From: an uncultured Bacteroidales bacterium
GTDB taxonomy: Bacteria > Bacteroidota > Bacteroidia > Bacteroidales > JAUNSR01
Length of the DNA: 64,000 bases
Assembly: GCA_947074145.1 (NCBI GenBank)
Contig: CAMTOJ010000007.1
Span: 42,742 to 106,741, forward strand
Direction: 5' to 3'
Shown here one piece after another: positions 26,861 through 48,796 of this stretch. Both the position numbers and the translations under genes were made by a program. Each line of letters begins with the position of its first letter. Position 1 is the first letter of the stretch. The notes below the pieces were generated by a model, which did not search any database, was not told where the DNA came from, and was given only the letters and a program-made list of their open reading frames with translations.

Positions 26861-26902
26861 CCTGCATTTCTGTCTTGCAGATAGAAATGCAGGTCTTTTT
26901 TT
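26861..26902 (+). terminator. Rho-independent terminator after purC
   Basis: CCTGCATTTCT (26861-26871) / AGAAATGCAGG (26883-26893), followed by TCTTTTTTT. Confidence 0.8.
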
Positions 26903-26912
26903 GTTTCTGAAA

Positions 26913-27656
26913 ATGAAAAAACGATATAATGCCGAAAAGGTAGTACCTTACAATGATAGTGAAGCGAAAACCAAACAGGTTAAAACAATGTTTGATTCAA
27001 TCGCTCATTCTTATGACAAACTCAATATAACTCTCTCTTTCGGGATAGATAGATTGTGGCGAAGGAAAGCTCTTGCTTCTTTGAAGAGGTTTGCTCCCAA
27101 GTCAATACTTGACGTTGCTACCGGAACGGGGGATCTTGCTATTCTTGCATACAAAAAATTGTCGCCCGACAAGATTACGGGAATTGATCTTTCTGAGGGT
27201 ATGCTGGAGATAGGAAGAGATAAGGTTAAGGCTGAGAATCTTCAGGATAAGATCACGTTGGAGTGTCAGGATTGTCTGAATCTTGATTTCGAGGATAACA
27301 CTTTTGATGCTATAACAGTAGGGTTCGGAGTGCGAAATTTTGAGAATATCAGTAAGGGTTATGATGAAATGTATCGTGTTTTAAAGCCGGGAGGCGTTTT
27401 GATGGTTCTTGAACTGTCTACTCCTGAGAAATTTCCAATGAATGTGCTTTACAATTTCTATTCATCAACAATAATTCCTACAATCGGGAAATTAGTATCA
27501 AACGATACAAAAGCTTACAGCTATCTTAATCAATCGATCAAAGCTGTACCACAAGGTGAAGAAATGGCTTCTATCTTTAAAAAATCGGGATTTAGAGAGG
27601 TTAGCTTTAAAAGATATACTTTCGGAATTTGTACAAATTATATGGGTATCAAATAA
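26913..27656 (+). CDS. ubiE: Demethylmenaquinone / ubiquinone C-methyltransferase
   Basis: FDSIAHSYDKLNITLSFGIDRLWRR and SAM motif LDVATGTGDLA. The ATG at 26913 is preferred over the TTG at 26901, which lies inside the purC terminator. Confidence 0.85.
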   Translation: MKKRYNAEKVVPYNDSEAKTKQVKTMFDSIAHSYDKLNITLSFGIDRLWRRKALASLKRFAPKSILDVATGTGDLAILAYKKLSPDKITGIDLSEGMLEIGRDKVKAENLQDKITLECQDCLNLDFEDNTFDAITVGFGVRNFENISKGYDEMYRVLKPGGVLMVLELSTPEKFPMNVLYNFYSSTIIPTIGKLVSNDTKAYSYLNQSIKAVPQGEEMASIFKKSGFREVSFKRYTFGICTNYMGIK

Positions 27657-34654: not shown

Positions 34655-35515
34655 ATGGAAAATTTTATCAAAACGGAGAAATTTTTTATTATATTTCTGA
34701 TAATTATGTCATTTGCTACTTCATGTAGTGATTCTTTATCAGATAAAACTATCGACACTACAATTCCCGGACCAAGCGGACGACTTTTTGTAACTCTTGA
34801 AATTCCCAAACTTAAGAAAAATGAAAAATGTCCAATGGTAATACTTATGCATGGTATTTTTTCAAATCGAAATACTGAATTAATGACGATGATTGCCAAT
34901 AAGTTGAAAGCGGAAGGTATAGCATCTATTCGTTTGGATTTTAATGGTCATGGTGAAAGTGATGGTGACTTCCAAAATATGACAGTCGCCAACGAAGTTG
35001 CGGATGCGAAAGCTGTATATGAGTATGCAAAGTCTTTAGATTGTGTAAGCTCAATATCTCTTTTAGGTCATTCTCAAGGTGGTGTTGTAGCAAGTTTACT
35101 TGCCGGAGAATTAGGAAATGAAAAGATTAAAAACGTTGTTTTGATGGCTCCTGCTGCCGTTCTTGAAGATCAGGCAAAAGAGGGAACTACATTAGGACAG
35201 AAATTCGATCCAAACGATATTCCTGAATACTTAGAGGTATTTGGACATAAAATAGGCAGAGAATATTTTAAAGTGGCTCAAAATCTTAATATATATGAGA
35301 ATGCGGCAAAATATAAAGGACAAGTTTATATTATTCATGGAATAAAGGATTTTGTCGTACCATATACTTACGCTGAAAAATATAATGATGTATATAATGA
35401 CAGTAAATTATCATTATTAGAAAATGAAGATCATTCTTTTGATAAAGAAAAAGAAAAAACAACAGATCTTGTTGCTAATTTCTTTGCTAATACACTTATA
35501 AAGAGTAATGAATAA
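34655..35515 (+). CDS. Alpha/beta-hydrolase (esterase-type) lipoprotein
   Basis: Lipobox FATSC, nucleophile elbow GHSQGG, and later D and H (ENEDHSF). Confidence 0.75.
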   Translation: MENFIKTEKFFIIFLIIMSFATSCSDSLSDKTIDTTIPGPSGRLFVTLEIPKLKKNEKCPMVILMHGIFSNRNTELMTMIANKLKAEGIASIRLDFNGHGESDGDFQNMTVANEVADAKAVYEYAKSLDCVSSISLLGHSQGGVVASLLAGELGNEKIKNVVLMAPAAVLEDQAKEGTTLGQKFDPNDIPEYLEVFGHKIGREYFKVAQNLNIYENAAKYKGQVYIIHGIKDFVVPYTYAEKYNDVYNDSKLSLLENEDHSFDKEKEKTTDLVANFFANTLIKSNE

Positions 35516-35590
35516 GAGATTAAAAAAAATAGATTAATAAGCTAAATTTACTTTTAAATAGAAAATAAGAGTGTTTTTTAATAAAAATCA

Positions 35591-35637
35591 AAAGAGATAG
35601 CCGGGCATAATACCTGGCTATCTCTTTTTGTTTTTTT
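35591..35637. terminator. Bidirectional terminator between the esterase gene and the convergent membrane-protein gene
   Basis: AAAGAGATAGCC (35591-35602) / GGCTATCTCTTT (35616-35627) plus inner GG/CC pairs, followed by TTGTTTTTTT. Confidence 0.8.
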
Positions 35638-35718
35638 ATAATAATCTCTTAAGATATTATCTTAATCTCTTTTTGATATTATATTATTATAATCTATAAT
35701 ACGTTTCCACTAAAAATC

Positions 35719-36231
35719 TCATCTTTTCAGAAGATATTTAATCACCAAATATCCTCCGAAAACTTGAAGCAACATACCCGGAATTCCTATTCTGAAATCC
35801 TGAATTGCTTTAAAAAAATCTCCTATTATTGCCCACTCAATAAGAGTTCCGAAAAGCTGATATGCAAGAACGACTAAAGCAAGGATAGGAAGAGATATCT
35901 TTTTAAAATACCCAGCGGCAAAGGCTGCCGATAACGCAAGAAAAACCGATTTAATCAATATTGCAGGAAGAACAGCCAAAGGGGGCATTCCGAAAAGCAG
36001 ATGATTTGCCAAAGGGGACAAAACAGCCGTTAAAAGTCCTGCTTTCCAACCATATTTATAAGCTGCAATAAGTGTAAAGAAATATATCGGAAGGAAAATA
36101 AATCCTCCCTGAGGGATAAGATGGCTAACTTGTGGAAGTACAATATTTCCAACCACGAACATCATAGCTATTATATATGTTCTTGCATCCCTGTAATCAA
36201 GCGAATAAAGTTTTAAAGCCTTAGTTTGCAT
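35719..36231 (-). CDS. Small polytopic inner-membrane protein (about 5-6 TM; ECF S-component-like or small permease-like), function unknown
   Basis: 170 aa, almost entirely hydrophobic helices (VVGNIVLPQV, FIFLPIYFFTLIAAY, LLTAVLSPL, LPAILIKSVFLALSAAFAAG, ILALVVLAYQLFG, MLLQVFGGYLVI). 19 nt downstream of the TonB receptor gene. Confidence 0.7.
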   Translation of the reverse strand: MQTKALKLYSLDYRDARTYIIAMMFVVGNIVLPQVSHLIPQGGFIFLPIYFFTLIAAYKYGWKAGLLTAVLSPLANHLLFGMPPLAVLPAILIKSVFLALSAAFAAGYFKKISLPILALVVLAYQLFGTLIEWAIIGDFFKAIQDFRIGIPGMLLQVFGGYLVIKYLLKR

Positions 36232-36250
36232 AAAGTTTTATTTGATTTGT

Positions 36251-38134
36251 TTAAAAATTCATATTAATTCCCCCCATAACCGTTGTTCCTGGCATTGGGA
36301 AACCTGTGTTTATTTCATATTTTTTGTTTAAAAGATTCTCCCCTTTTACATAGAGTTCTATCTTTTTAGTTGGTTTTACCTTCAGTATTGCATTCCATAA
36401 CAAGAAGTTTTCCTGTTCCACGGGACTTAAAGATGTATACAATCCATCAATATATTGTGCACCGGTTGAAACCCCAAACCATTTTGAATCATAATTTACT
36501 CCACAGTAAAACTTATGTTCAGGGGCTGCCAAAACAGGCGTTTCCATATGTAACCAACTATAATTAGTCAAAATACTAAATGCTGTCGAAAGTTGATAAG
36601 AAGCAGAAAGTTCCGCTCCCCAATTCTCAATATCACCGGTATTTACATTTAAAGGTCTTCCGTTTACAGGCATTACCCTAATTATATTATCACCCTTAAT
36701 ATAGAAAGCATTAACCGAATAAGAAAGCTTATTATCTAATAACCTTTGAGAAAAAGAAAATTCATAATTCCACAAAGACTCCGGCTTCAAATCCGGGTTT
36801 TGTGGTGGGAACATATACATCTCTCTAATTGTAGGGTTTCTAAACCCGCGACTTGCGATTATCTTGATCTCTGAAGTTTGCAATGGATATAAAGATACAC
36901 CGAATTGAGGTATCCAATGAGAACCACTGACAGAATGATGGTCAAAACGAACGCCTGCGTTAAGAGTAATAAAAGAAGCCAGATTCTGTCGAATATCAAT
37001 ATATCCTGCAATATTATCCTCTGTCTTATCAATTATATCGGTATTTGTACCATCATTAAAGGCATTCCATGCATGTCCTCCAAAATTCTGATAATCAAAA
37101 CCGAAAGTAATTCTATTGCCTGAGAAAAGATTAAAGCCCTGATACCAATTAATACCATACATCTTATCAGTTGAATTAAAGAGATAATCACGAGGAGATC
37201 CTCCCTCATTAAATCCGTCATCTATTTTATGACGTCCCCAATTATAAAATAACTTGATTGCTCCTGACGAAAGTTCATAATTATTTTCAATAGCTACAGA
37301 TGCCACTCCCCTTGTAATCTGAGAATCATTATCAAAAATCGGATTTATATCAGTTCCGGGATTTGATGCATTAAAATGAGTCAGACTAAGATCAGTGAAA
37401 ACATTCCAGTTTTCAGTTATATCATATCCCAATTTTGCATAACCTCCATATTGTTCAAAATCCATATTTTCACGATGTCCGTCACTTCTGTTATAAGAAC
37501 CTGTAATGACAGATGAAAATTTATTCTTTCTTACTCGGTTTGAAAACTCTGTAGTGAGAGTATTATATGATCCATATCCAACTTTCAGATTGGTGTTCAC
37601 TCCATCATTTTTCTGTTTTTTTGTCAGAATATTTATCACACCACCCATTGCATTAGAACCGTAAAGCATCGAAGATGGGCCCCTTACTATTTCCACTTTC
37701 TCAGCAATCATTGACTGATAAGCATCTGCGATAGAATGCCCCATTAATCCCATATATTGAGGATGACTATCAATAAGAATCAACATTCCAGTAGTTGGGG
37801 AACCGCCCACTCCTCTCATAGAGATACCTCCAGCTGCTCCGGTAGAAACACCATAACCCATTACTCCACGAGAAGTTGTAAAAAGGCCGGGTACAAGTTC
37901 TGTCAAAACCGGAAGTAAAGATTGTTCATATCGCTTCTCAATCTGATTATTATCGACTATAGAAACACTTAAAGGCAAATGTCTTAAATCCACCTCACTA
38001 CGCGCTCCGGTCACTACAACTTCAGAAATAAGTAAACTATCGCTTATGGCTGTATTTGCCATAAGCATTGAATTTTGAGCAATACCGGATATCAGTGTAA
38101 ATCCGAATATTGAGCCTATTAATATTTTATTCAT
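36251..38134 (-). CDS. BtuB-sized TonB-dependent receptor (plug plus 22-strand-barrel type, no N-terminal extension)
   Basis: ISEVVVTGAR, plug motifs (ISMRGVGG..., LILIDSHP, VEIVRGPSSMLYGSNAMGGVINILTK) and terminal GGINMNF. 627 aa. Confidence 0.85.
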   Translation of the reverse strand: MNKILIGSIFGFTLISGIAQNSMLMANTAISDSLLISEVVVTGARSEVDLRHLPLSVSIVDNNQIEKRYEQSLLPVLTELVPGLFTTSRGVMGYGVSTGAAGGISMRGVGGSPTTGMLILIDSHPQYMGLMGHSIADAYQSMIAEKVEIVRGPSSMLYGSNAMGGVINILTKKQKNDGVNTNLKVGYGSYNTLTTEFSNRVRKNKFSSVITGSYNRSDGHRENMDFEQYGGYAKLGYDITENWNVFTDLSLTHFNASNPGTDINPIFDNDSQITRGVASVAIENNYELSSGAIKLFYNWGRHKIDDGFNEGGSPRDYLFNSTDKMYGINWYQGFNLFSGNRITFGFDYQNFGGHAWNAFNDGTNTDIIDKTEDNIAGYIDIRQNLASFITLNAGVRFDHHSVSGSHWIPQFGVSLYPLQTSEIKIIASRGFRNPTIREMYMFPPQNPDLKPESLWNYEFSFSQRLLDNKLSYSVNAFYIKGDNIIRVMPVNGRPLNVNTGDIENWGAELSASYQLSTAFSILTNYSWLHMETPVLAAPEHKFYCGVNYDSKWFGVSTGAQYIDGLYTSLSPVEQENFLLWNAILKVKPTKKIELYVKGENLLNKKYEINTGFPMPGTTVMGGINMNF

Positions 38135-38194
38135 CTATTTTTTTGAAACACTTTAGTTTATCTCTCAATCAACTCTTAAAAGGAATATAACTGT

Positions 38195-38214
38195 CTCTGC
38201 CGTGTTAATACAAA
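38195..38214 (-). promoter_or_regulatory. Weak third copy of the TTTGTATACAA-N-CATCAGT motif, upstream of the TonB receptor
   Basis: The minus strand reads TTTGTATTAACACGGCAGAG, matching 13/20 positions of the copy at 43044-43063. It lies 61 nt upstream of the receptor ATG. Confidence 0.25.
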
Positions 38215-38260
38215 TTTCGAGTTCATCCTGTTAATCAACTTCTAAAAAAAATATATCCCT

Positions 38261-39670
38261 TTATAGTGTTTCTTGTTTAAGACTTTCCGCATAACGATCT
38301 ATTCTCATCAATTCCTTAGGAATCTTTATTGTTTGAGGACAATGATGACTACATTGATCACATCCGATACAATGATTTGCCTGCCTTAATTTCGGCACCG
38401 TACGGTCATAGCCCACAAGAAATGCTCTTCTTGATTTTTTATAATTCTCATCCTGACTACTTTGTGGGAAATTATCTTCTGACACACATTTATTATAATG
38501 GAGAAATATTGACGGAATATCTATACCATAAGGACAAGGCATACAATACTGACAAGCAGTACAAGCTACAAGAGGATATTCAATCATTAATTTTGCAGTT
38601 TCTTCAAGCAAATGATTTTCCTTCTCAGTAAGAGGTTCTAAAGGAGAATATGTCTTAAGATTATCCTGCAAATGTTCCATATATGTCATCCCACTAAGCA
38701 CGGTAAGAACACCCGGAAAAGACCCGGCATATCTAAAAGCCCATGACGCTATACTATTATCTCTTTTTTGTTGTTTAAGCCTTCCCATCAGATAATCGGG
38801 AAGTTTTGCAAGTCGCCCTCCTAAAAGAGGTTCCATTATAATTGAAGGAATACCTCTTTTTTGCAACTCCTCATACAAATATGAAGCATTCGTATTAGCC
38901 TTATTTATCTGTTTTGCATAATTCCAGTCTAAATAATTAAGCTGGATCTGCACAAAATCCCATTTTATTTCATCATGTCGTGAAAGCAGATAATCAAAAA
39001 CCTCAATATCACCATGATAAGAAAAACCAAGGTTACGTATTCTTCCTGCTTTCCTTTCCTCTATCAAAAAGTCTAGTATTCCATTATCAAGATAACGTCT
39101 ATGCAATGAATTCATTCCTCCCTGACCTATGGCATGAAGAAGCATATAATCGATATAATCTACCTGTAATTCTTTGAAAGAATCATAGTACATTTTCAAC
39201 GATGCCTCTCTACTCCATGTATCGGGAGAAAAATTAGACAGCTTTGTTGCTATATAATACTTATTTCTGGGATGACGTTTTAATGCAATACCTAACGATT
39301 TTTCAGATTCTCCGCGACAATACACAGGCGATGTATCAAAATAATTCACTCCATTCTCAAGAGCATGATCAGTTAAAGCATTAACAGCTTCCTGATCTAT
39401 AGTATTTGCATTCTCCCTTGCACTATTTCCAGCAATAGTAGGAAGGCGCATAAATCCAAACCCAAGCAATGAAACTCTATCTCCCGTACTCGGAGTCTGA
39501 CGGTAAGTCATTTCTCCCTTTTGAGATAATGACAATGTAGTTCCTCCTCTTTCTTCGTCTTTTGGTTTGAAACCCACAAGAGCTGCTGACGAAACAACTG
39601 CGCTGCCGCCTAAAAGTTTGATAAAATTTCTGCGACCTATATTATTTTTATTATTCTTATTTTCTGACAT
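38261..39670 (-). CDS. Tat-signal aldo/keto reductase fused to a C-terminal 2x[4Fe-4S] ferredoxin domain
   Basis: Twin-arginine leader MSENKNNKNNIGRRNFIKLLGGSAVVSSAALVG. AKR motif GVNYFDTSPVYCRGESEKSLG. C-terminal CTACQYCMPCP and CIGCDQCSHHCP. The ATG at 39670 is preferred; the 39763 extension overlaps the upstream gene. Confidence 0.85.
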   Translation of the reverse strand: MSENKNNKNNIGRRNFIKLLGGSAVVSSAALVGFKPKDEERGGTTLSLSQKGEMTYRQTPSTGDRVSLLGFGFMRLPTIAGNSARENANTIDQEAVNALTDHALENGVNYFDTSPVYCRGESEKSLGIALKRHPRNKYYIATKLSNFSPDTWSREASLKMYYDSFKELQVDYIDYMLLHAIGQGGMNSLHRRYLDNGILDFLIEERKAGRIRNLGFSYHGDIEVFDYLLSRHDEIKWDFVQIQLNYLDWNYAKQINKANTNASYLYEELQKRGIPSIIMEPLLGGRLAKLPDYLMGRLKQQKRDNSIASWAFRYAGSFPGVLTVLSGMTYMEHLQDNLKTYSPLEPLTEKENHLLEETAKLMIEYPLVACTACQYCMPCPYGIDIPSIFLHYNKCVSEDNFPQSSQDENYKKSRRAFLVGYDRTVPKLRQANHCIGCDQCSHHCPQTIKIPKELMRIDRYAESLKQETL

Positions 39671-39680
39671 AATCTTTCTT

Positions 39681-41198
39681 TTAAATAGTTCTGTGCATTG
39701 TGTGACCCTCAACGTAAATAGCACTGAATGGTCGTGCAGGACATAGATTCTCGCAAGCGCCACAGCCTATGCAACGTTCGGTATTAATTGTGGGAATCTT
39801 TTTAGAATCAAATCCGTCTTCATCCATTTCAATCATAACAATTGCTCCTACGGGACAATGTCGGGCACAATTTCCACAACTTACTCCATCTGTAAGAACG
39901 ACGCAATTCTTTTCTATCCATACCGCATGCCCTATTTGTGTAGATGATTTATCTTCTCTTGATACTGCGGTAATAGCACCTGCCGGACATACTTCGGAAC
40001 ATTTTGTACATTCAGGTCTGCAATATCCTCTTTCGTACGACATCTCCGGTTGCATAAAAGAAGTCAGGGCGGTAGATGGTCTCAACACATTATTCGGACA
40101 TGCCGAAACACAAAGCTGACATCCAGTACAACGACGAGTAAAATTTCTTAGATTTTGAGCACCTGCAGGCACTAACTGAGTCTGACGTTCCGGTATTTTT
40201 TTATCTTCTATGAATGCAAGTCCCCCGTCTACTTTCTTTCCTTGTGCTTTAATAGCAGAGGTAGCTAACAGTGTGCCCGCAATCGTAAGCATATTTCGTC
40301 TTGAGGAATCAATCTGGTCATTAGATACCATTGCTTTTTCAGGAACAGGTTGCTCTTTAACCGATTCTTCTTTAGGCTGTCCGAAAGAAGGAGTATATTT
40401 TATCGCCTCTTTTTTACATTTCCCTATACAATTATAGCAACTCACACATCTCGAATAATCAATTGTATGCGATTTTGCATCAATACATGAAGCCTTACAA
40501 TTTTTTGCACAAAGTCCACAACTATTACATTTTGAAGTATCAATACGATGTTTATAAATAGAGAACTGAGATAAAAAACCAAGAACTGTACCAACAGGAC
40601 ATATTGTATTACAATAAGTTCTACCTCCTCTCCATGCCAATACAACAATAGATATCAAAGTGATGACAGCTATTGAAAATGTTGATATTGATCTGATCCA
40701 AACCTCTTTTTCATAAAAAGCATAACTGTCCATTCTTTCAGCCAATGAAGCAAAGAAATTATTGACCAACTGATATAAAGGAGCTAAAAGATTTGAAACT
40801 ATTCTTCCAAAGGCACTATAAGGCTCCAAAAGAGCAACAAAGGATCCAAAGCCGGCTATAAAAGCAATAACAAACAATATTAAGACTCCATAACGTAACC
40901 ATGACATAGCCTTTGAAAAATAAAATCTGTTTTTCTTATTTCGTGATGCGACTTTTGAGATCAGATCCTGAAATAATCCAAGAGGGCATACCACAGAACA
41001 ATAAATTCGGCCCAATAAAAGAGTAATAAGAATTAATCCTGTTATTATTCCAAAGTTCAACGCCATTAATGCCGGAAAGAACTGAATCTTTGCCATCCAG
41101 CCAAACCAGGTGTGAATAGTTCCCGTAAAATCGAGAAACAATAAAGTAATCAGAGCCATAAACAAAACGGCGGAGATGGTTCTTATTCTTTTTAGCAT
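39681..41198 (-). CDS. Membrane polyferredoxin: NapH-like module (4 TM, two CxxxCP, two [4Fe-4S]) fused through an RR-containing TM to a NapG-like 4-cluster ferredoxin
   Basis: CSVVCPLG (aa 67-73) and CNTICPVG (196-202). CNSCGLCAKNC and CVSCYNCIGKC. Internal SSRRNMLTIAGTLLATSAIKA (aa 298-318). Then CTGCQLCVSACP, CRPECTKCSEVCP, CGNCARHCP and CIGCGACENLCP. Confidence 0.8.
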   Translation of the reverse strand: MLKRIRTISAVLFMALITLLFLDFTGTIHTWFGWMAKIQFFPALMALNFGIITGLILITLLLGRIYCSVVCPLGLFQDLISKVASRNKKNRFYFSKAMSWLRYGVLILFVIAFIAGFGSFVALLEPYSAFGRIVSNLLAPLYQLVNNFFASLAERMDSYAFYEKEVWIRSISTFSIAVITLISIVVLAWRGGRTYCNTICPVGTVLGFLSQFSIYKHRIDTSKCNSCGLCAKNCKASCIDAKSHTIDYSRCVSCYNCIGKCKKEAIKYTPSFGQPKEESVKEQPVPEKAMVSNDQIDSSRRNMLTIAGTLLATSAIKAQGKKVDGGLAFIEDKKIPERQTQLVPAGAQNLRNFTRRCTGCQLCVSACPNNVLRPSTALTSFMQPEMSYERGYCRPECTKCSEVCPAGAITAVSREDKSSTQIGHAVWIEKNCVVLTDGVSCGNCARHCPVGAIVMIEMDEDGFDSKKIPTINTERCIGCGACENLCPARPFSAIYVEGHTMHRTI

Positions 41199-41274
41199 AG
41201 TTAATCTATTAATGTGATTGTTAGTTATTTGATTTATGAGTAAATTATATCAATGTGTTATTTATATTTCTTCT

Positions 41275-41898
41275 TTATTTAATGTAGCCATGTTCTCTCA
41301 GCCATTTTTCCAGAGCAGAACGCGATGATGTAACTCTGTTCCTTGATATTGCCGGTATAGCAATAACTTTGGCATCTTTTTCAAGTTTAGTAATAGTTTC
41401 AACAGATTGAGAAAATCCACTTCCTCCATGTGTGCAAAATGATATTATAGTCTTACCACTGAAATCATAATCCTCAAAAAAGGAATATATCACCATTGGC
41501 ATATCATACCACCAATTGGGATAACCAACGAATATAACATCATACTGATTAAAATTTTCTATTTTATTTGCAATCTTGGGATAATTTTTATTTTCAGCTT
41601 CTTTTTTGGCATAATCGATAAGCTCCTTATGATTACCGGGATATTCAAAATTTGTTTTTATCTGAAAAAGTTCACCTCCTGTCAAACTTGCAATCTCCAT
41701 CGCTATATATTCTGTTGCTCCGTAAAGTTTTCCCTCTGCAATCACTCTGCTTGCACCACTTGAAGCATCAACTCCATCTGTTTCCGGAACAGTGAAATAG
41801 GATACTAAAACCTTATGTTTATTATTCTGTGCCAGAGATGGCAAAGAACATAAAATCAAAAAAAGTAAAATAGTCGTTGAAACAAATATCTTTTTCAT
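41275..41898 (-). CDS. Flavodoxin-like (Flavodoxin_4-type) protein with Sec signal peptide
   Basis: Signal MKKIFVSTTILLFLILCSLPSLAQ. VLVSYFT..., YDVIFVGYPNWWYDMP and FCTHGGSG are typical of the short flavodoxin-like family. Confidence 0.75.
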   Translation of the reverse strand: MKKIFVSTTILLFLILCSLPSLAQNNKHKVLVSYFTVPETDGVDASSGASRVIAEGKLYGATEYIAMEIASLTGGELFQIKTNFEYPGNHKELIDYAKKEAENKNYPKIANKIENFNQYDVIFVGYPNWWYDMPMVIYSFFEDYDFSGKTIISFCTHGGSGFSQSVETITKLEKDAKVIAIPAISRNRVTSSRSALEKWLREHGYIK

Positions 41899-41968
41899 AT
41901 CTATCTGATTTACAAAATTTATCCGATGTAAAAATATATATCAAAAATCAAGAAATCGAACACGAATT

Positions 41969-41987
41969 ACTGATGATTGTATACAAA
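41969..41987 (-). promoter_or_regulatory. Operator-like motif TTTGTATACAA-T-CATCAGT upstream of the flavodoxin operon (divergent from araC-type gene)
   Basis: The plus strand reads ACTGATGATTGTATACAAA. It contains the perfect 10-bp palindrome TTGTATACAA, lies 70 nt upstream of the flavodoxin ATG, and is embedded in a direct repeat AATTACTGAT (41965-41974, 41986-41995). Confidence 0.5.
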
Positions 41988-42125
41988 TTACTGATTAAAT
42001 CTATTTAATAGTTTCAACTAATACATATTACGGATTCTTTTATACTTATTACTTATTATAAATCAAGATTATATGACTACTCAAAACTATAATTATTTTT
42101 GTAAAAAACAAAAACATATTGTATC

Positions 42126-43025
42126 ATGAAGGATATTAAAAAATATACTACTATAGACGAATATAATAAATCTATGGGAGTGGAAACTCTCCACCCTCTT
42201 GTATCTATAATTGATTTTTCAAAAACTAATCATCAAGGGGAATTTCCGGCAGGACACTCTTTCGGTTATTATACTGTTTTTCTTAAAGATGTCAGATGCG
42301 GTGATATGAAATATGGAAGGAACTACTATGACTACCAAGAGGGAACACTTGTTTTTCTTGCCCCTGATCAAATTGTCAGAATTGAAAATAGGATGCCTCA
42401 TAAGCCAAAGGGATGGGCTCTTATGTTTCATGCCGATCTGATAAGAGGTACATCTCTTGCAAAGAGTATGAAAGACTTCAGCTTCTTCTCTTATGAGGTG
42501 TTTGAAGCATTACACTTATCAGAACAAGAGCGACAAATTGTGCTCGAATGTTTCGCAAATATAGCATCCGAATTAAAACATGATATAGATAAGCATTCCG
42601 CAAGATTAATTGTATCAAATATTGAGCTATTTCTAAATTATTGCATACGTTTCTACGATCGTCAATTCATTACAAGAGGACATGTTAATAGTGATATCTT
42701 AAGCAAATTTGAAAATATTCTAAATGAATATTTCCATTCCGATCAACCACAAAAAAACGGTTTGCCAACGGTCAAATATTGTGCCGACAAACTTAACATA
42801 TCAGCAAATTATCTCGGAGATCTCTTAAAAAAGGAAACAGGCAAAAGCGCTCAAGAACATGTTCAATTACGTCTTATTGAGATTGCAAAAGAAAAAATGT
42901 TTGAAAAAGACAAATCTATTAGTCAAGTGGCTTATGAGTTAGGATTTGAATACCCTCAATATTTCAGTCGACTTTTCAAAAAAAGGGTTGGTATGACACC
43001 TAACGAATACAGATCATTGAATTAA
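42126..43025 (+). CDS. AraC-family transcriptional regulator (cupin-like sensor plus 2x HTH)
   Basis: C-terminal SISQVAYELGFEYPQYFSRLFKKRVGMTPNEYR. The N-terminal ~150 aa form an AraC-binding-like domain. Confidence 0.85.
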   Translation: MKDIKKYTTIDEYNKSMGVETLHPLVSIIDFSKTNHQGEFPAGHSFGYYTVFLKDVRCGDMKYGRNYYDYQEGTLVFLAPDQIVRIENRMPHKPKGWALMFHADLIRGTSLAKSMKDFSFFSYEVFEALHLSEQERQIVLECFANIASELKHDIDKHSARLIVSNIELFLNYCIRFYDRQFITRGHVNSDILSKFENILNEYFHSDQPQKNGLPTVKYCADKLNISANYLGDLLKKETGKSAQEHVQLRLIEIAKEKMFEKDKSISQVAYELGFEYPQYFSRLFKKRVGMTPNEYRSLN

Positions 43026-43043
43026 AATTTTAGACTTCTGTGA

Positions 43044-43062
43044 TTTGTATACAAACATCAGT
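43044..43062 (+). promoter_or_regulatory. Operator-like motif TTTGTATACAA-A-CATCAGT upstream of the cupin gene
   Basis: Same 19-nt motif as 41969-41987 (18/19 identical), in the same orientation relative to the downstream gene, 52 nt from the ATG. It sits just upstream of the TACCTTTG -7 box. Confidence 0.5.
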
Positions 43063-43095
43063 AAAATGTTTAAAAACAAGTTGCATTTCAAGAGA

Positions 43096-43103
43096 TACCT
43101 TTG
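43096..43103 (+). promoter_or_regulatory. Candidate -7 box (TACCTTTG) for the cupin gene
   Basis: Matches TAnnTTTG, 11 nt upstream of the ATG at 43115. Confidence 0.4.
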
Positions 43104-43114
43104 CTTTAGATTAA

Positions 43115-43621
43115 ATGACAACTATCATGAAAAGAAAAATTGTTTCAACTATATGCTTTTTATCTCTTTTTTCCATAACAATATTAAATTCACAGAACAT
43201 GGATAATAAAGAAATCCCTAAAATCAGCGATTTTCCTGTAGGCAATAAACTGCCCGAAATCTATTCTCAATATTTTATAGGTCAGGCATATCTTGCCCCT
43301 CTTACTCATGATAAAGATCTTAACGTTCCGATATCAAATGTAACATTCGAACCGGGCTGCCGGAATAACTGGCATAGCCACACAGGTGGACAAACTCTTG
43401 TTGTAGTTGGTGGTCAGGGATGGTATCAGGAAAAAGGACAACCTGCTCGTTTTCTCAAACCCGGAGATGTTGTTGAAATAGAAAAAAATGTCGTACACTG
43501 GCACGGAGCAACCGCCGATAGTTGGTTTTCACATCTTGCCATTGAATGTAATCCTGAATATAACAAGAATACATGGCTTGAGCCTGTTACTGATGAAGAA
43601 TATTCACAACTCAAGAAATAA
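43115..43621 (+). CDS. Secreted cupin-domain protein
   Basis: Signal peptide MTTIMKRKIVSTICFLSLFSITILNSQ. Cupin metal motif NNWHSHTGGQTLVVVGG...VHWHGA. Confidence 0.8.
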   Translation: MTTIMKRKIVSTICFLSLFSITILNSQNMDNKEIPKISDFPVGNKLPEIYSQYFIGQAYLAPLTHDKDLNVPISNVTFEPGCRNNWHSHTGGQTLVVVGGQGWYQEKGQPARFLKPGDVVEIEKNVVHWHGATADSWFSHLAIECNPEYNKNTWLEPVTDEEYSQLKK

Positions 43622-43660
43622 AGAGATCTGATATCTCTTTTTAGTTTATTTCCTAACCAT

Positions 43661-43726
43661 ACGGTCCGATCATTCCATCACTAAATCACTTTCTTTTATA
43701 TACTATTTTTTCGGACCGTTTTTTTA
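43661..43726 (+). other. Long-loop GC-rich hairpin plus T6 tract in the tatA leader (terminator, attenuator or small RNA 3' end)
   Basis: ACGGTCCGA (43661-43669) / TCGGACCGT (43711-43719) with a 41-nt loop, followed by TTTTTT. It ends 20 nt before the tatA ATG. A weaker hairpin AAGAGAT/ATCTCTT at 43621-43639 follows the cupin stop. Confidence 0.45.
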
Positions 43727-43745
43727 AACATCAAAAAAACATATT

Positions 43746-43955
43746 ATGTCATCACTTTTTCTGTTTATGATGCCCGGTGGTCAAGAGATCATATTAATTC
43801 TTATCCTTGTTGTATTGCTTTTCGGAGGTAAGAAAATACCCGAATTGATGAAAGGTGTAGGTATAGGAATAAAAAGCTTTAAAGAGGGAATGAATGGAAT
43901 ATCGGAGAACGATAAACAGGATAATGAGAACAATAAATCTGCTTCCAAAAGATAG
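43746..43955 (+). CDS. tatA: Twin-arginine translocase subunit TatA/E
   Basis: [38 protein letters not shown] is the TatA TM plus amphipathic helix signature. 69 aa. No tatC in the window. Confidence 0.85.
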
Positions 43956-44047
43956 ACAATTCAACCTTTTTTTAATTTAATAGATCAGTAAAGATTGCAA
44001 CCTTTCCCAAATAGGTTTCATGAATTCAGATAATCTTGTTATGTAAA

Positions 44048-44094
44048 AAAAGCAGAGTAACATCACTTCACTGACGATTACTCTGCTTTTCTTT
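44048..44094. terminator. Bidirectional terminator between tatA and the TraB/GumN gene
   Basis: Perfect 13-bp stem AAAAGCAGAGTAA (44048-44060) / TTACTCTGCTTTT (44078-44090). Confidence 0.8.
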
Positions 44095-44147
44095 TATCAT
44101 CCTTAATATTAAAGATTAAGGTTCGATGTACACAAATGTAAATTATT

Positions 44148-45029
44148 CTATTTAAAAGATCTTATCCCTGTCAGAGTATATCCCTGTTTTTCCAAAAGAT
44201 CTATCATCCCCTCCTCTGCCGGAAGATGTGCTGCACCAACCACCAAAAGGATAGACTTGTGTGGAAGAATCGATTTTAATTGTTCAGCCCAATCTCTGTT
44301 TCTTTTAATTATAATTGACTCGACCTCCTCTTTGGTCATACCCGTATCATCGTCATCTTCATTCATTAACTCTTTTAATTTATCTATATCTTGCGACATA
44401 TAAGAAAGAGAAGATCTTTTGCTTATCTCAATATATTTCTCAGGATTTTCTACATACTTCATAAGATTTTCAATTTGCGCAGACAAAGACGTACCGAATA
44501 ATAGTTTGCATTGTTGTTCTAATGTCTCTAATCCTTTAACTTCAATATTTTTCTCTAAAGCAAGTTTTTGAAAATAAGTATCGAGCTGAAATTCTGAATC
44601 AAAATCAGGAAATACATCAAGAGATCTCTTTGCTTCGATAGTTGTAACAAGAACTACCGGTTTCAACATTTTGGCATTATTAATATCCATTCCAAGCTCA
44701 CACTTTATCAACTCCCCTACTTTTTTATATTGTTCGTTAGTCAATATCACATCAAGAAGAGAATCCTGTGGCAAAGTCATATACTTTTTAATAATATCTC
44801 CATGGTTTGTCAACTCCGTAAAAACTAACTCTGCATAAACACAATCGATATTTTTATAAATATCATATATTCCCGGAATACTATCCAAAATAGATTTTGG
44901 CGCGAAATGATGAGTCCCGAACATATAAGAAGGCTTACTCAACCCGTTACCCGAAATCTCCCACAACAGCTGAGCCCGAATATTAAAAAATATTACAAGC
45001 GAGAAAATTAGTATAATGATTCTCTTCAT
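44148..45029 (-). CDS. TraB/GumN-family protein, secreted
   Basis: LLWEISGNGLSKPSYMFGTHH and C-terminal VVGAAHL. Confidence 0.8.
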   Translation of the reverse strand: MKRIIILIFSLVIFFNIRAQLLWEISGNGLSKPSYMFGTHHFAPKSILDSIPGIYDIYKNIDCVYAELVFTELTNHGDIIKKYMTLPQDSLLDVILTNEQYKKVGELIKCELGMDINNAKMLKPVVLVTTIEAKRSLDVFPDFDSEFQLDTYFQKLALEKNIEVKGLETLEQQCKLLFGTSLSAQIENLMKYVENPEKYIEISKRSSLSYMSQDIDKLKELMNEDDDDTGMTKEEVESIIIKRNRDWAEQLKSILPHKSILLVVGAAHLPAEEGMIDLLEKQGYTLTGIRSFK

Positions 45030-45605: not shown

Positions 45606-48600
45606 ATGAAAGAAAGATTTCTCTGTAAATGTACCGGTATGCATAAATATCGCACGACATGGATTATCTTTTTCCTGTTCGGAATTATTTTAAGCAGTTC
45701 TGCTAATGTGAATCAGGAAAAAACTGTGTCCGGAGTAATTATTTCGGCTCTCGATGATGAGCCGCTTATTGGCGTGTCAGTACTTGTAAAAGGTACTAAC
45801 ACCGGAACGATCACTGATTATGACGGTAAATACACAATTGCCGCATCAGGAGGTCAGACACTTGTATTCTCTTATATAGGATACAACACTCAGGAGATTG
45901 TAATCAACAATCGTCAAACAATCAATGTTTCCATGTATGAAGATCTTAAAATACTTGAAGAAGTTGTTGTAATAGGATTTGAAGTACAAAAGAAAAAACT
46001 TGTAACAGGGGCCACTGTTCAAATTAAAGGAGATGAAATTTTAAAAAGAAACACAACCAACCCACTTCAGGGGATGCAAGGTCAGACTCCCGGGGTAAAT
46101 ATCACATCTACAACCGGTCAGCCGGGTAAAGATATGAAGGTATCCATTCGTGGTTTAGGTACTGTAGGTAATTCACAACCATTATATCTTATAGATGGTG
46201 TGGGTGGAGATATTTCCACTGTTAATCCTGCTGATATCGAATCTATCGATATCCTTAAGGATGCTGCTTCTGCAGCTATCTATGGAGCACAAGCTGCGAA
46301 TGGTGTTGTACTTGTTACAACAAAAAAAGGAAAAGAGGGAAGAAGTCAGGTAATGTTTGATGCTTATTATGGTGTACAAAATGCTGCTCGTACGGTTGAT
46401 ATGCTAAACTCATCTGAATATATGATGATTATGGATGAACAAGCTTTGAACTCAGGTGAAAGCGCATATGATTGGAGCAGTTATAAAAGCATCAAAGATG
46501 CTGATGGCAATTATTATGACACAGACTGGGTTAATTCTTTGTTGAAAGATAATGCGGCAATTCAAAGCTACAATCTTGGAATAACAGGAGGTAATGCTAT
46601 GTCTAACTACTCTATCTCAGGAGGATATATGTCACAAGAAGGTATTGTGGGAGGTAAAGATGTTTCAAACTACGAACGTTATAATTTCCGTGTTAATTCA
46701 GAACATAAAGTTTATAAAGATCTTATTACCGTAGGTGAACATGTAAGTTTCGTTCATAAGAACTCTAAGAACATGGATGATGTAGGTAATGGACATAATG
46801 GAAATAGAATATATTCAGCATTAAATTCATCACCACTTGCTCCAATATATAGTGATAACGGAGCATACGGATCTCCTTACAACAGCACAGCCAGCTCTGA
46901 TTGGAATGGCGGTGACGGTAATCCTTACGGACAGATGATGACCTTATCACAATCTCAGAATAGAAATAACACTTTTGCCGGTGACGTTTATCTTCAAATT
47001 GAACCGATTAAAAATCTTAATATTAAGACTCTTTTTGCTCTATCGTACAGCTCATATGACTACAGAAAATATACTCCAAGATATGAGTTTGATTCATATT
47101 CAAACAAAGACAAAGATTATGCAGAACAGAGCATGGGTAACGGTTATACCACAACATGGCAAAATACGGCTACTTACAGATGGACCGTTGCAGACCATTC
47201 ATTCAATGCACTTTTGGGTATGGAATTATCTATGTCTGACGGTTCTGATGTAGGGGGAAAAAATGCAATGCTTACTAACGGTTTCGGAAGCTGGAATACC
47301 GCATATATCGACAATGGTACAGCTCAATCTAAAGATGCCGGTCTTAGTTTATTTGGTAAACCTTGGGATAGCTCAAGAAACTCTTCTCAATTCGGTCGTC
47401 TTGGATGGAACTGGAAAGAAAGATATATGATCAATGCAACTCTTCGCCATGACGGTTCTTCAAAATTTGCAGAAGGCAATCGTTGGGGATGGTTCCCTTC
47501 TGTATCAGGAGGTTGGACTTTGACAAACGAAGAATGGGCAAATAATTCTGAATCCGGATTAGATTTCCTTAAACTACGTGCAAGTTGGGGTCAGGTTGGT
47601 AACAACAATATTTCTAACTTCCAGTATATGGCACCTATCTCCTATCTTGGATACTATACTTTCGGAACTGTGACAGGTGCAACAAGTGAAGGTTATGTAC
47701 AAGGTGCTTACCCAAGCAGAATAGCTAATAAAAACATCAAATGGGAAACTTCAGAACAAACAAATATCGGTATAGATGCTCGTTTCCTTGACTCGCGATT
47801 AAATTTAGTTGCAGATTATTATATCAAAACAACAAAAGACTGGCTTGTTGAAGCTCCAATTCTTGCAACAACAGGTACAGGAGCTCCATTCATCAATGGT
47901 GGTAATGTTGAAAACTCAGGAGTTGAACTTGCACTTACGTGGTCTGACAGAATCGGTAAAGATTTCAACTATTCAATAAGCGTAAATGGAGCATATAATA
48001 AAAATGAGGTGAAAGATATCCCTAATGAAGACGGTATCATTCACGGCGAATCAGGTAAACTATATGATAACTCAGAAGAGTTTTACAGAGCTCAAAACGG
48101 TCATGCTATCGGTTATTTCTGGGGTTATAAAACAGCAGGTATTTTCCAGAACGAGCAGGAGATAAAAGACTGGGTTGCAGAAGGCAATGGTGTATTGCAA
48201 AATAATCCTCGTCCGGGTGATGTAAAATATGTAGATGTAGATAAAAATGGTCTAATAAATGAAGAAGACCGCGTTGACTTAGGTTGTGGTATTCCTAAAT
48301 ACACATTCGGTTTCTCTATAAATATGGATTGGAAAGGTTTTGATTTCTCAGTAACTGCTAATGGTGTGGCAGGAAATAAATTAGTTCAGTCATACAGACA
48401 AATAGCGGCTAAACAATCTAATTACACAACAGAAATACTTAATCGTTGGACTGGAGAAGGAACTTCAAACAAAATTCCAAGAGTAACAAACACAACAGAT
48501 AACTGGTTATTCTCTGATCTATATATCCACGATGGTGATTATTTGAGAATCAGCAATATCACTCTTGGTTATGATTTTGCGACTGCATTCAGAATTAAAA

Positions 48601-48773
48601 ACATTTCAAAAGCAAGAGTTTATGCACAAGTTCAGAATGCTTTCACATTTACCAAATATAACGGTATGGATCCTGAAATCGGAACAGGTTCTGAAAGTTG
48701 GGTATATGGTCTTGACCAAGGTTACTACCCTCGTGCCAGAACATTCTTGGTTGGTGTAAACCTTTATTTCTAA
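45606..48773 (+). CDS. susC: SusC/RagA-family TonB-linked outer-membrane transporter
   Basis: CarbopepD_reg N-domain (VSGVIISALDDEPLIGVSVLVKGTNTGTITDYDGKYTI), plug (IESIDILKDAASAAIYGAQAANGVVLVTTKKG) and ~1050 aa ending VGVNLYF. The start may be the ATG at 45639. Confidence 0.9.
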   Translation: MKERFLCKCTGMHKYRTTWIIFFLFGIILSSSANVNQEKTVSGVIISALDDEPLIGVSVLVKGTNTGTITDYDGKYTIAASGGQTLVFSYIGYNTQEIVINNRQTINVSMYEDLKILEEVVVIGFEVQKKKLVTGATVQIKGDEILKRNTTNPLQGMQGQTPGVNITSTTGQPGKDMKVSIRGLGTVGNSQPLYLIDGVGGDISTVNPADIESIDILKDAASAAIYGAQAANGVVLVTTKKGKEGRSQVMFDAYYGVQNAARTVDMLNSSEYMMIMDEQALNSGESAYDWSSYKSIKDADGNYYDTDWVNSLLKDNAAIQSYNLGITGGNAMSNYSISGGYMSQEGIVGGKDVSNYERYNFRVNSEHKVYKDLITVGEHVSFVHKNSKNMDDVGNGHNGNRIYSALNSSPLAPIYSDNGAYGSPYNSTASSDWNGGDGNPYGQMMTLSQSQNRNNTFAGDVYLQIEPIKNLNIKTLFALSYSSYDYRKYTPRYEFDSYSNKDKDYAEQSMGNGYTTTWQNTATYRWTVADHSFNALLGMELSMSDGSDVGGKNAMLTNGFGSWNTAYIDNGTAQSKDAGLSLFGKPWDSSRNSSQFGRLGWNWKERYMINATLRHDGSSKFAEGNRWGWFPSVSGGWTLTNEEWANNSESGLDFLKLRASWGQVGNNNISNFQYMAPISYLGYYTFGTVTGATSEGYVQGAYPSRIANKNIKWETSEQTNIGIDARFLDSRLNLVADYYIKTTKDWLVEAPILATTGTGAPFINGGNVENSGVELALTWSDRIGKDFNYSISVNGAYNKNEVKDIPNEDGIIHGESGKLYDNSEEFYRAQNGHAIGYFWGYKTAGIFQNEQEIKDWVAEGNGVLQNNPRPGDVKYVDVDKNGLINEEDRVDLGCGIPKYTFGFSINMDWKGFDFSVTANGVAGNKLVQSYRQIAAKQSNYTTEILNRWTGEGTSNKIPRVTNTTDNWLFSDLYIHDGDYLRISNITLGYDFATAFRIKNISKARVYAQVQNAFTFTKYNGMDPEIGTGSESWVYGLDQGYYPRARTFLVGVNLYF

Positions 48774-48796
48774 TCATAATCTTAATACTAATAAAT

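Follow-up and report, generated by a model that had tools for sequence, protein, structure and literature searches.

A putative redox and transport operon in an uncultured Bacteroidales bacterium

The window analyzed here is a 64,000-nucleotide (nt) stretch of contig CAMTOJ010000007.1 from an uncultured Bacteroidales bacterium (~33% GC), whose occurrence is recorded in a single metagenome set (SRR76101xx). Its minus strand carries a five-gene operon in which an iron-sulfur (Fe-S) electron-transfer protein and exported redox proteins are combined with a TonB-dependent receptor and a small membrane protein, termed S170 here, with the predicted fold of the S component of energy-coupling factor (ECF) transporters. 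The operon comprises the following genes (lengths in amino acids, aa; the sources of the assignments are given in parentheses):

41275..41898, minus strand: exported flavodoxin of the Flavodoxin_4 family, 207 aa, first gene of the operon (open reading frame (ORF) listing, Pfam/NCBIfam)
39681..41198, minus strand: NapH-NapG-like membrane polyferredoxin, 505 aa (ORF listing, Pfam/NCBIfam)
38261..39670, minus strand: aldo/keto reductase (AKR) with a twin-arginine translocation (Tat) signal and a C-terminal 2x[4Fe-4S]-type tail, 469 aa (PF00248, Fer4_9)
36251..38134, minus strand: TonB-dependent outer-membrane receptor, 627 aa (Plug and barrel)
35719..36231, minus strand: S170, 170-aa membrane protein with a predicted S-component fold (AlphaFold2 (AF2), Foldseek)

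An initial annotation of this DNA had recognized these five ORFs, and both their coordinates and the successive gaps of 76, 10, 126, and 19 nt are borne out by the ORF listing. For the AKR, the longest ORF begins with a GTG at 39763 and overlaps the upstream polyferredoxin gene; we took the ATG at 39670 (MSENKNNKNNIGRRNFIK...) as the start because it aligns with the N-termini of all homologs and yields the 10-nt gap. All the parts of the operon come from known families, and none of them is recovered by NCBIfam as an equivalog of a characterized protein.

Conservation of the gene neighborhood

Relatives of S170 number 7042 in a set of 5.8 billion proteins and fall into 885 clusters at 50% identity in an exhaustive profile search; counting one genome per GTDB species, there are at least 576 S170 loci. 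A profile of distant S170 representatives, together with a metagenome scan, recovered mostly Bacteroidota-like relatives that are 43-77% identical to the window S170; both were aimed at the Firmicutes operons described by Iyer et al. (PMC3239186), and they brought to light the variants with a phosphoribosyltransferase and DUF362 or with a cytoplasmic AKR (see below). We mapped the window proteins onto 80 S170 loci and clustered all the neighboring ORFs (L-numbers below, e.g., L006, label the related loci compared with the window). Partner frequencies near S170 were counted over the 47 species-representative loci with at least 6 kb of sequence upstream and at least 3.5 kb downstream of S170:

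polyferredoxin and AKR with the Fe-S tail (AKR-FeS): 41/47 loci, 87%
TM1506/DUF1893: 34/47 loci, 72%
TonB receptor, directly upstream of S170: 25/47 loci, 53%
tatA: 23%
tatC: 21%
AraC-family regulator: 21%
flavodoxin, directly upstream of the polyferredoxin: 10/47 loci, 21%
exported DUF362 protein: 15%
cupin: 1/47 loci, 2%

The polyferredoxin-AKR-S170 arrangement is far beyond chance and recurs across Bacteroidales families, with carriers in Bacteroides, Phocaeicola, Prevotella, Alistipes, Butyricimonas, Dysgonomonas, and Odoribacter, as well as in Muribaculaceae, Rikenellaceae, Tannerellaceae, and Marinilabiliaceae. Tractable carriers include B. cellulosilyticus DSM 14838 (L030) and B. intestinalis (L031). 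The commonest gene order is polyferredoxin, AKR, TM1506, receptor, S170, and tatA-tatC, the latter pair lying directly behind S170 in at least 10 of the 47 loci. Since this synteny recurs in related genomes, the cluster can be regarded as a functional unit; the initial annotation had taken it for one, and the neighborhood counts agree, with the polyferredoxin and AKR beside S170 in 41 of the 47 loci. The core of the system is formed by the polyferredoxin, the AKR, and S170; the receptor often joins them, and the flavodoxin does so occasionally. S170 is the constant element across all the variants of the system that are described below, and the pattern common to these is the combination of S170 with an Fe-S redox enzyme and a small cytoplasmic nucleotide-binding protein.

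The polyferredoxin and the aldo/keto reductase

The polyferredoxin contains two matches to the NapH-type Fer4_5 domain (PF12801) along with many matches to other Fer4-family models in Pfam, and its best NCBIfam matches are to NapG (74.4 bits vs a cutoff of 269) and NapH (62-64 bits vs 234). Its NapH-like half comprises four transmembrane (TM) segments, a pair of CX3CP motifs close to the membrane, and two ferredoxin motifs, and the NapG-like half displays four cluster motifs. The features of NapH and those of NapG, namely a twin-arginine signal and four 4Fe-4S motifs, are hence all found in one chain, with the signal at the junction of the two halves:

40230..40307, minus strand: internal twin-arginine signal SSRRNMLTIAGTLLATSAIKAQ, polyferredoxin residues 298-323 (sequence motif)

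This element starts with SSRRNML at residue 298 and continues with a hydrophobic stretch ending in KAQ, after which the four cluster motifs follow; the RR motif is present at the matching position in 55 of 59 full-length homologs. The predicted role of the signal is to bring the NapG-like Fe-S domain to the far side of the membrane with the help of the Tat machinery, which suggests a dual Sec/Tat insertion of the protein, possibly with cleavage after KAQ. Dual Sec/Tat-targeted Rieske proteins offer a precedent for the Tat export of a C-terminal domain, and such an export is all the more attractive because tatA-tatC often directly follow S170. By analogy to the known topology of Escherichia coli NapH, the first two clusters would face the cytoplasm. 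Given that the ferredoxin motifs of the NapH-like half, two in number, are predicted to lie on the cytoplasmic side, a cytoplasmic donor is as possible as the menaquinol assumed in the initial annotation, and the source of the electrons would be either menaquinol or a cytoplasmic ferredoxin or flavodoxin. The flow of electrons may also run in the opposite direction.

The AKR domain is unambiguous in Pfam (PF00248, 124.4 bits vs a cutoff of 24) and is followed by a Fer4_9 dicluster domain. Its N-terminus bears the twin-arginine motif GRRNFIK at residue 12 followed by the hydrophobic stretch LLGGSAVVSSAALVG. Among 65 full-length AKR homologs the Tat motif RRxF[LI]K is kept in 61 and a lipobox cysteine follows the hydrophobic stretch in 59, on account of which the usual form of this enzyme would be a Tat-exported lipoprotein. 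The window AKR and that of the closest relative, L006, have ...VGFKPK without the lipobox cysteine at this point and are therefore probably soluble or signal-anchored. The catalytic tetrad D112/Y117/K143/H179 is invariant in 26 aligned homologs, cytoplasmic paralogs included, as are the eight cysteines of the two ferredoxin-type motifs, which argues that the protein is probably a working enzyme with two clusters. We accordingly treat the AKR as the predicted periplasmic catalytic subunit of the system. Its nearest relatives of solved structure are sugar dehydrogenases, e.g., L-galactose dehydrogenase (E=1e-16). The asparagine that usually contacts the nicotinamide is presumably replaced in the window protein (GFSYHG), as judged against the AKR motifs that we take to be typical. 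A single-sequence structure model of the AKR reached a pLDDT of only 36 and was discarded.

S170 as a probable solitary S component

The AF2 model of S170, built from 45 homologs (pLDDT 85.4, pTM 0.81), finds ECF S components as all of its top 14 Foldseek matches in the PDB (5edl, RibU, PanT, FolT, and ThiT; TM-scores 0.48-0.65). An ECF-type S-component fold is well supported by this model, and it lends weight to the earlier proposal that the 170-aa protein acts as a transporter. At the sequence level the match to the ECF_trnsprt family is weak (PF12822, 20.6 bits, under the cutoff of 30.7), an NCBIfam scan gave no match, and a sequence search of the PDB gave none even at E<=10. Among 24 distant relatives of S170, 19 match PF12822 at E<=1 (best 8e-8), and the EetB family (PF07456) is matched marginally by a single one (E=0.16); NCBI names the S170 homologs 'ECF transporter S component'. 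As no ECF energizing genes recur in its neighborhoods, S170 looks like a solitary S component. Separately, 10 of the same 24 relatives weakly match a LytS-type five-TM sensor domain (best E=5e-4).

The TonB-dependent receptor, TM1506, and variant loci

The window receptor is a generic TonB-dependent receptor only, with its NCBIfam scores falling short of the equivalog cutoffs for B12 (TonB-B12, 115.9 bits vs 599.7), siderophores (siderophore subfamily, 134.2 vs 223.5), and heme (112.3 vs 316.9). The commonest extra partner of the system, TM1506/DUF1893, could not show itself in the window sequence: a tblastn search of the 64-kb window found no homolog (best E=0.23), and its absence is common to a minority of loci (L006, L013, L027, L079, and the B. 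cellulosilyticus group). The fold of TM1506 is deaminase-like, and the protein was crystallized in an ADP-ribosylated state with an unidentified NAD/ADP-ribose-like ligand (PMC3239186); its structures are PDB 1VK9 and a second orphan entry, 9E9A. It lacks a signal peptide, and the Thermotoga gene adjoins ribosomal genes, a context that is uninformative. A search with a 1VK9 fragment recovered only four proteins.

The variants of the locus differ in which redox and cytoplasmic components accompany S170. The simplest (L001-L004 and L018) link only TM1506, the TonB receptor, and S170, with no redox genes, and look like a plain pair of outer- and inner-membrane importers with a cytoplasmic enzyme. 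Several others, including L108, L092, and L136, possess a 371-aa paralog of the AKR-FeS without a signal peptide beside TM1506 and S170. A further set, comprising L126, L115, and several human-gut contigs, has the gene order S170, 133-135-aa phosphoribosyltransferase, optional receptor, DUF362 protein with a Tat signal, and polyferredoxin, the last being 43% identical to that of the window. The phosphoribosyltransferase is nearest to xanthine and hypoxanthine-guanine phosphoribosyltransferases, with scores well below their cutoffs. In these loci the phosphoribosyltransferase replaces TM1506 and the exported DUF362 protein replaces the AKR. More generally, exported DUF362 proteins with Sec or Tat signals occur by S170 and the polyferredoxin (L029:9016-9999, L126:8945-9874, and L115:10882-11823), where they join or replace the AKR-FeS.

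TM1506 and the receptor form one continuous ORF in three loci (L035:7599-9989, L057:7576-9984, and L065:7698-9989). These read-through ORFs keep the receptor's own methionine and signal peptide in frame, and the TM1506-receptor 'fusion' of the 2011 paper probably reflects a lost stop codon or a case of translational coupling rather than a true domain fusion. In Dysgonomonas sp. 216 (L005/L034:9835-9984), TM1506 and S170 are separated by a 49-aa ORF whose sole match is to the C-terminal end of the receptor. This ORF is apparently what is left of a receptor gene, implying that the operon can lose its receptor.

We also observed a family of ~210-aa proteins with signal-peptide or lipoprotein-like N-termini, no Pfam match, and the conserved motif ...YPESTL[KR]D[IL]YK.FFQDR[FL]GPGH... 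(L011:5631-6278, L073:1963-2586, and ~7 other loci). Its gene falls between that of TM1506 and that of either the receptor or S170, chiefly in Alistipes and Rikenellaceae, and the product is a possible additional accessory of the system.

The exported flavodoxin

The first gene of the window operon codes for a flavodoxin recognized by PF12682 (87 bits) and by the NCBIfam model PRK06934 (201.7 bits, above the cutoff of 172), with an N-terminal hydrophobic signal at residues 1-24. It carries an insertion with a motif for ApbE-dependent flavinylation:

41749..41769, minus strand: ApbE flavinylation motif D44-A-S-S-G-A-S50, in an insertion between strand 1 and helix 1 (exact D-x-x-[S/T]-G-A-[S/T])

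ApbE attaches flavin mononucleotide (FMN) to the last residue of the motif D-x-x-[S/T]-G-A-[S/T] (PMC12052999), and Ser50 is the predicted FMN-linked residue of the window flavodoxin. This is the single match to the motif in the six-frame translation of the window. Across the 80 loci it is found in 7 of 1021 ORFs, six of which are these flavodoxins and the seventh a classical protein with FMN_bind and NapH-like Fer4_5 domains. Some loci have a Flavodoxin_4 protein without the insertion in the same position, and in L063 a Tat-signal FMN_red protein takes the place of the flavodoxin. The polyferredoxin thus repeatedly has an exported flavoprotein as its partner but can do without one. The flavodoxin had been listed as a component of the system in the initial annotation; its export stands, and it proves to be an optional member, present in 21% of loci, of the ApbE-flavinylated type. 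The same annotation held that the soluble redox parts are exported, and the predicted signals agree, with the Tat motif kept in nearly all full-length AKR homologs (61/65) and a signal peptide in every one of the flavodoxins that adjoin the polyferredoxin upstream. In a single case (L011:687-1412), which is perhaps a coincidence, a RibD_C (pyrimidine-reductase-like) gene lies between the flavinylated flavodoxin and the AKR-FeS.

Regulation and flanking genes

The region upstream of the flavodoxin gene and the 3' end of the operon contain the following features:

42126..43025, plus strand: AraC-family regulator, divergent (HTH_18/HTH_AraC)
43115..43621, plus strand: exported cupin, downstream of araC (Cupin_2; N-terminal signal)
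43746..43955, plus strand: lone tatA, downstream of araC (TatA_B_E)
41960..42052, minus strand: four same-orientation repeats GTAATNNGTRT, spaced 21, 40, and 21 bp (motif count)
35590..35628, no strand assigned: strong hairpin of 16 pairs with A and T runs on its flanks, between the convergent S170 and alpha/beta-hydrolase genes (terminator scan)

The divergent plus-strand positions of the AraC, cupin, and tatA genes are as first annotated. An AraC ortholog lies in the same divergent position in L006 (87% identical), L013 (80%), and L027 (78%), and this regulator is specific to certain lineages, occurring in ~21% of loci. The 227-bp spacer between the AraC and flavodoxin genes holds four of the five matches to GTAATNNGTRT in the window, against a chance expectation of 1.2 and with fewer than five in every shuffle; the repeat blocks are kept in L006 and L013 and the rest of the spacer diverges. 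Direct repeats with a two-turn spacing fit AraC-type operators, and the GTAATNNGTRT repeats are likely candidates for AraC operator half-sites. Control of the operon by AraC, as initially suggested, is therefore plausible for the lineage of the window, given four operator-like repeats in the divergent promoter that are kept in two relatives. Elsewhere, a LytS-type kinase and a LytTR regulator are found upstream of the system in 13 loci, and other loci have no adjacent regulator.

The cupin and the lone tatA had been listed alongside the system as its neighbors. They are not conserved partners: the cupin recurs in just one of the 47 loci, neither gene has a match in the closest relative L006, and both are local neighbors that fall outside the conserved system. 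The cupin scores 129 bits against an NCBIfam model for (R)-mandelonitrile-lyase-like proteins, below the cutoff of 140. The 64-kb window contains no tatC.

The hairpin at 35590-35628 is likely a bidirectional terminator that ends the operon; weak matches of small-RNA models there are consistent with the hairpin only. The terminator scan found no hairpin terminators in the internal gaps of the operon, and no Rfam family was detected at gathering thresholds in the whole window. A scan for sigma-70 promoters gave 42 matches vs 37 expected, with a consensus that is not the promoter type of Bacteroidetes.

Several genes in the vicinity deserve mention. An alpha/beta-hydrolase gene (34655-35515), convergent to S170, encodes an N-terminus with a lipobox-like ...ATSC, and in L013 and L027 S170 is immediately followed, on its own strand, by a homolog that is 56% identical; we found no evidence tying the gene at 34655-35515 to the S170 system. 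On the other side, a pair of SusC-like (CarboxypepD_reg and Plug, 1055 aa) and SusD-like genes at 45606-50464 starts a plus-strand run of large ORFs that extends to ~63.9 kb, of which the first two ORFs were scanned. This run is probably a polysaccharide-utilization locus and appears unrelated to the operon. Further away, at 26901-27656, lies a gene for a UbiE/COQ5-type (UbiE/MenG) methyltransferase (232 bits), which suggests a quinone pool and is consistent with menaquinone biosynthesis in the organism.

Proposed function and alternative explanations

We propose that these genes specify a system of the cell envelope for the uptake of a small organic molecule that is scarce and whose redox state is altered in the course of import, a reading to which we would give a probability of roughly one half. 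In the order of events that we infer, the TonB-dependent receptor would bring the compound into the periplasm, where the Tat-exported AKR would act on it, most likely by reducing it. The electrons would traverse the inner membrane via the polyferredoxin, passing through its NapH-like half and then through the Tat-translocated NapG-like half; in the window organism they might additionally pass via the covalently flavinylated periplasmic flavodoxin, which could convert one- into two-electron transfer. S170 would then carry the product into the cytoplasm. There, in most species, TM1506 or the purine-type phosphoribosyltransferase, which the window does not encode, may trap or convert the product, much as kinases trap the substrates of Pnu-type vitamin carriers. 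In the window organism, the AraC regulator acting on the four direct repeats would probably control the operon.

The role of S170 in uptake is supported by the minimal TM1506-receptor-S170 loci and by its well-supported S-component fold, and a link between the enzyme and the transported molecule is supported by the cytoplasmic AKR paralogs and by the DUF362 and phosphoribosyltransferase replacements found beside S170. Because the cytoplasmic partners include a phosphoribosyltransferase and a protein with a deaminase fold, the leading guess for the substrate is a heterocyclic base or a cofactor precursor; with TM1506 and the phosphoribosyltransferase as the cytoplasmic partners, an organic base-like substrate is also favored over a metal. 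Iron or another metal as the substrate was set aside, with no metal-transport families being present and the cytoplasmic partners being of the nucleotide type. The analogy to FtrD and iron uptake that had been drawn initially likewise finds no echo in the gene content: none of the ten proteins scanned in and around the cluster belongs to the Ftr1 or P19 families or is a cupredoxin according to Pfam.

A more specific version of this proposal, which we regard as doubtful, would make the system an unrecognized vitamin or base salvage pathway of gut Bacteroidales. Here, the receptor would capture an oxidized or carbonyl-containing heterocycle, the Tat-exported AKR-[4Fe-4S] protein would reduce it with electrons from the Sec/Tat dual-targeted NapH-NapG fusion, and the solitary S component would import it; TM1506/DUF1893 would trap the product by ribosylation, being a new ribosyl or ADP-ribosyl transferase interchangeable with the mini phosphoribosyltransferase, and the Tat machinery would mainly serve this pathway in many species.

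Several points weigh against the uptake-and-redox proposal. The chemistry of AKRs is normally a hydride transfer from NAD(P)H, and the periplasm is devoid of free NAD(P)H. The route from one-electron Fe-S clusters to such hydride chemistry is unexplained, and the possible flavodoxin bridge is available in only 21% of loci. A tightly bound nicotinamide exported with the folded AKR, or a flavoprotein mediator, are two conceivable ways of driving the enzyme, both of them speculative. Menaquinol (about -74 mV) is moreover a poor donor for ordinary carbonyl reduction. For the flavodoxin, no apbE was found among the 22 window ORFs scanned against Pfam. On the transport side, no EcfT or EcfA family recurs among the clustered neighbors of the 80 S170 loci, and this absence of a recurring ECF energizing module leaves import through S170 with no evident driving force, although shared modules can be encoded elsewhere in a genome. 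Some loci (L092, L029, and L083) have both a periplasmic and a cytoplasmic AKR, from which it would follow either that S170 carries different species or that the two enzymes carry out different steps. Rfam searches of the whole window, of 35000-44500 at permissive settings, and of nine variant loci detect no riboswitch that could name the substrate; they yielded only terminator-like hairpins and an unlinked thiamine pyrophosphate (TPP) element in L091 that is 4.4 kb off and on the other strand. Finally, all the structure-based claims made here derive from one AF2 model, that of S170.

The conserved linkages also allow for other readings. In the first of these, which strikes us as improbable, the system would belong to energy metabolism, with the AKR-FeS as a periplasmic dehydrogenase or respiratory reductase linked to the menaquinone pool via the polyferredoxin, and S170 and the receptor would only supply or remove its substrate or product. 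Such a role would be in keeping with the sugar dehydrogenases that are the closest solved relatives of the AKR, with the quinone pool suggested by the UbiE/MenG-type methyltransferase at 26901-27656, and with the service of NapH-like modules to respiratory reductases and to an alcohol oxidase in other bacteria (PMC8238504). It sits poorly with the repeated tight linkage to a vitamin-type S component and to TM1506 or the phosphoribosyltransferase, which is typical of salvage and not of bulk respiration, and with the BtuB-sized TonB receptor, which suggests a scarce substrate; moreover, a respiratory role in the periplasm is impossible for the AKR paralogs beside S170 that lack a signal.

Cofactor export is a reading to which we give a still lower probability: S170 would move a cytosolic dinucleotide-type cofactor (flavin or NAD(P)-like, perhaps from TM1506) out to the flavodoxin and the AKR, and the receptor would separately feed the enzyme its substrate. 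Export down a gradient needs no ATPase and would thus fit a solitary S component, and the window flavodoxin needs FMN derived from flavin adenine dinucleotide (FAD) outside the cytoplasm. There is a parallel in the ECF-S-like protein EetB, which exports FAD for extracytosolic flavinylation and in some genomes co-localizes with NapH-like systems (PMC9973259), and the NAD/ADP-ribose-like ligand in the TM1506 crystals (PMC3239186) could be viewed in the same light. However, the S170 family matches PF12822 and not the EetB family PF07456 (1/24 relatives, E=0.16), and in ~79% of loci S170 is present and the flavodoxin absent. S170 is also found in loci without any exported redox protein, i.e., those with TM1506, receptor, and S170 or with only a cytoplasmic AKR, and Tat is established to export proteins with their cofactors already bound. 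Very improbable is an envelope-detoxification role, with AraC, flavodoxin, AKR, and cupin as a stress module reducing periplasmic quinones or carbonyls and the receptor and S170 as merely co-regulated neighbors: quinones and aldehydes are common substrates of AKRs and flavodoxin-fold proteins, and the exported cupin and AraC regulator do lie alongside in the window, but the cupin occurs in 1/47 and AraC in 21% of loci, S170 is the invariant partner, and within the operon the receptor gene is flanked by those of the AKR and S170, 19 nt separating it from the latter.

The identity of the substrate would establish a new exchange within the gut, of a micronutrient or of redox kind, and it would give a function to DUF1893/TM1506, with its two orphan crystal structures, to the Fe-S-tailed AKRs, and probably to the exported DUF362 proteins. 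Bacteroidales dominate many animal guts and rely on scavenged cofactors, and this cluster, which has no assigned function, is present in several hundred species-representative genomes or more, the tatAC genes of the cell often lying within it. The polyferredoxin in addition offers a naturally occurring case of a polytopic Fe-S protein in which Tat appears to insert the C-terminal half via an internal signal. Were the cluster instead a minor detoxification or respiratory module, it would be of modest interest.

Relationship to known systems

A parallel in logic is found in the reduction of ferric siderophores by FoxB or FpvGHJK, in which TonB-dependent uptake is coupled to a periplasmic redox step fed from the membrane and to import. 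This logic is shared with the proposal for the window system, but the proteins come from wholly distinct families, and nothing points to a metal substrate in the latter.

The association of TM1506 with an AKR and a five-TM protein, and its link to TonB receptors in Bacteroidetes, were noted in a few sentences, without a function, by Iyer, Zhang, Rogozin, and Aravind (2011; PMC3239186). Those operons link the same AKR with a metal-cluster region and the same small polytopic protein, i.e., S170. In that account, however, the cysteine-rich tail was read as a zinc ribbon and the AKR as a Rossmann-fold protein, and Tat export, the NapH-NapG polyferredoxin, the flavodoxin, the tatAC linkage, and the S-component fold did not figure in it; the window operon for its part differs from the operons described there in lacking TM1506. 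The initial annotation had known of no characterized system with the five-gene combination; we likewise found no functional account of it, but the core association was noted in passing in 2011 (PMC3239186). Our search of the literature found no functional study of the AKR/ECF/TonB/polyferredoxin/DUF362/Tat combination in Bacteroides, and an iron-stimulon paper makes no mention of the operon genes. Nor did we find a published description of the Tat-exported AKR-FeS as a client, of the NapH-NapG fusion with an internal Tat signal, of the embedded tatAC, of the S-component identity of the five-TM protein, of the flavinylated flavodoxin partner in Bacteroidales, or of the variants with the phosphoribosyltransferase and DUF362. 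What emerges is a NapH-type periplasmic redox module that would be coupled to uptake by a TonB receptor and an S component.

Huang et al. (2024; 10.1101/2024.03.13.584918) described a class of Flavodoxin_4 proteins that are extracytosolic and flavinylated, most of them from Firmicutes and adjoining apbE. The window flavodoxin shares with these the Pfam family, the signal peptide, and the insertion after strand 1 with the D-x-x-[S/T]-G-A-[S/T] motif. It differs from them in its Bacteroidales host, in having no apbE among the window ORFs scanned, and in its NapH-NapG polyferredoxin neighbor. S170 similarly resembles both the ECF S components (RibU, ThiT, FolT, and PanT) and EetB in its small helical S-component fold, with EetB showing that proteins of this kind can be coupled to redox systems outside the cytosol (PMC9973259). 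In contrast to these, S170 has no EcfT/EcfA recurring nearby, stays under the PF12822 cutoff, and falls outside the EetB family.

NapH-like proteins are modular transmembrane electron conduits that lead to extracytosolic reductases or from oxidases, with clients that are mostly unknown (Meheust et al., 2021; PMC8238504). The window system has the hallmarks of NapGH and NapH-like systems: a four-TM CX3CP Fe-S protein is combined with a Tat-type polyferredoxin and an exported oxidoreductase, and a flavinylated carrier co-occurs (PMC8238504). It departs from them in that the two halves are fused with an internal twin-arginine signal between them and score far below the family cutoffs, in that the flavin carrier is a separate Flavodoxin_4 protein and not an FMN_bind domain, and in that the cluster has no NapA, NapB, or NapC, the client being the AKR-FeS. 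The window polyferredoxin would work like NapGH but is not Nap.

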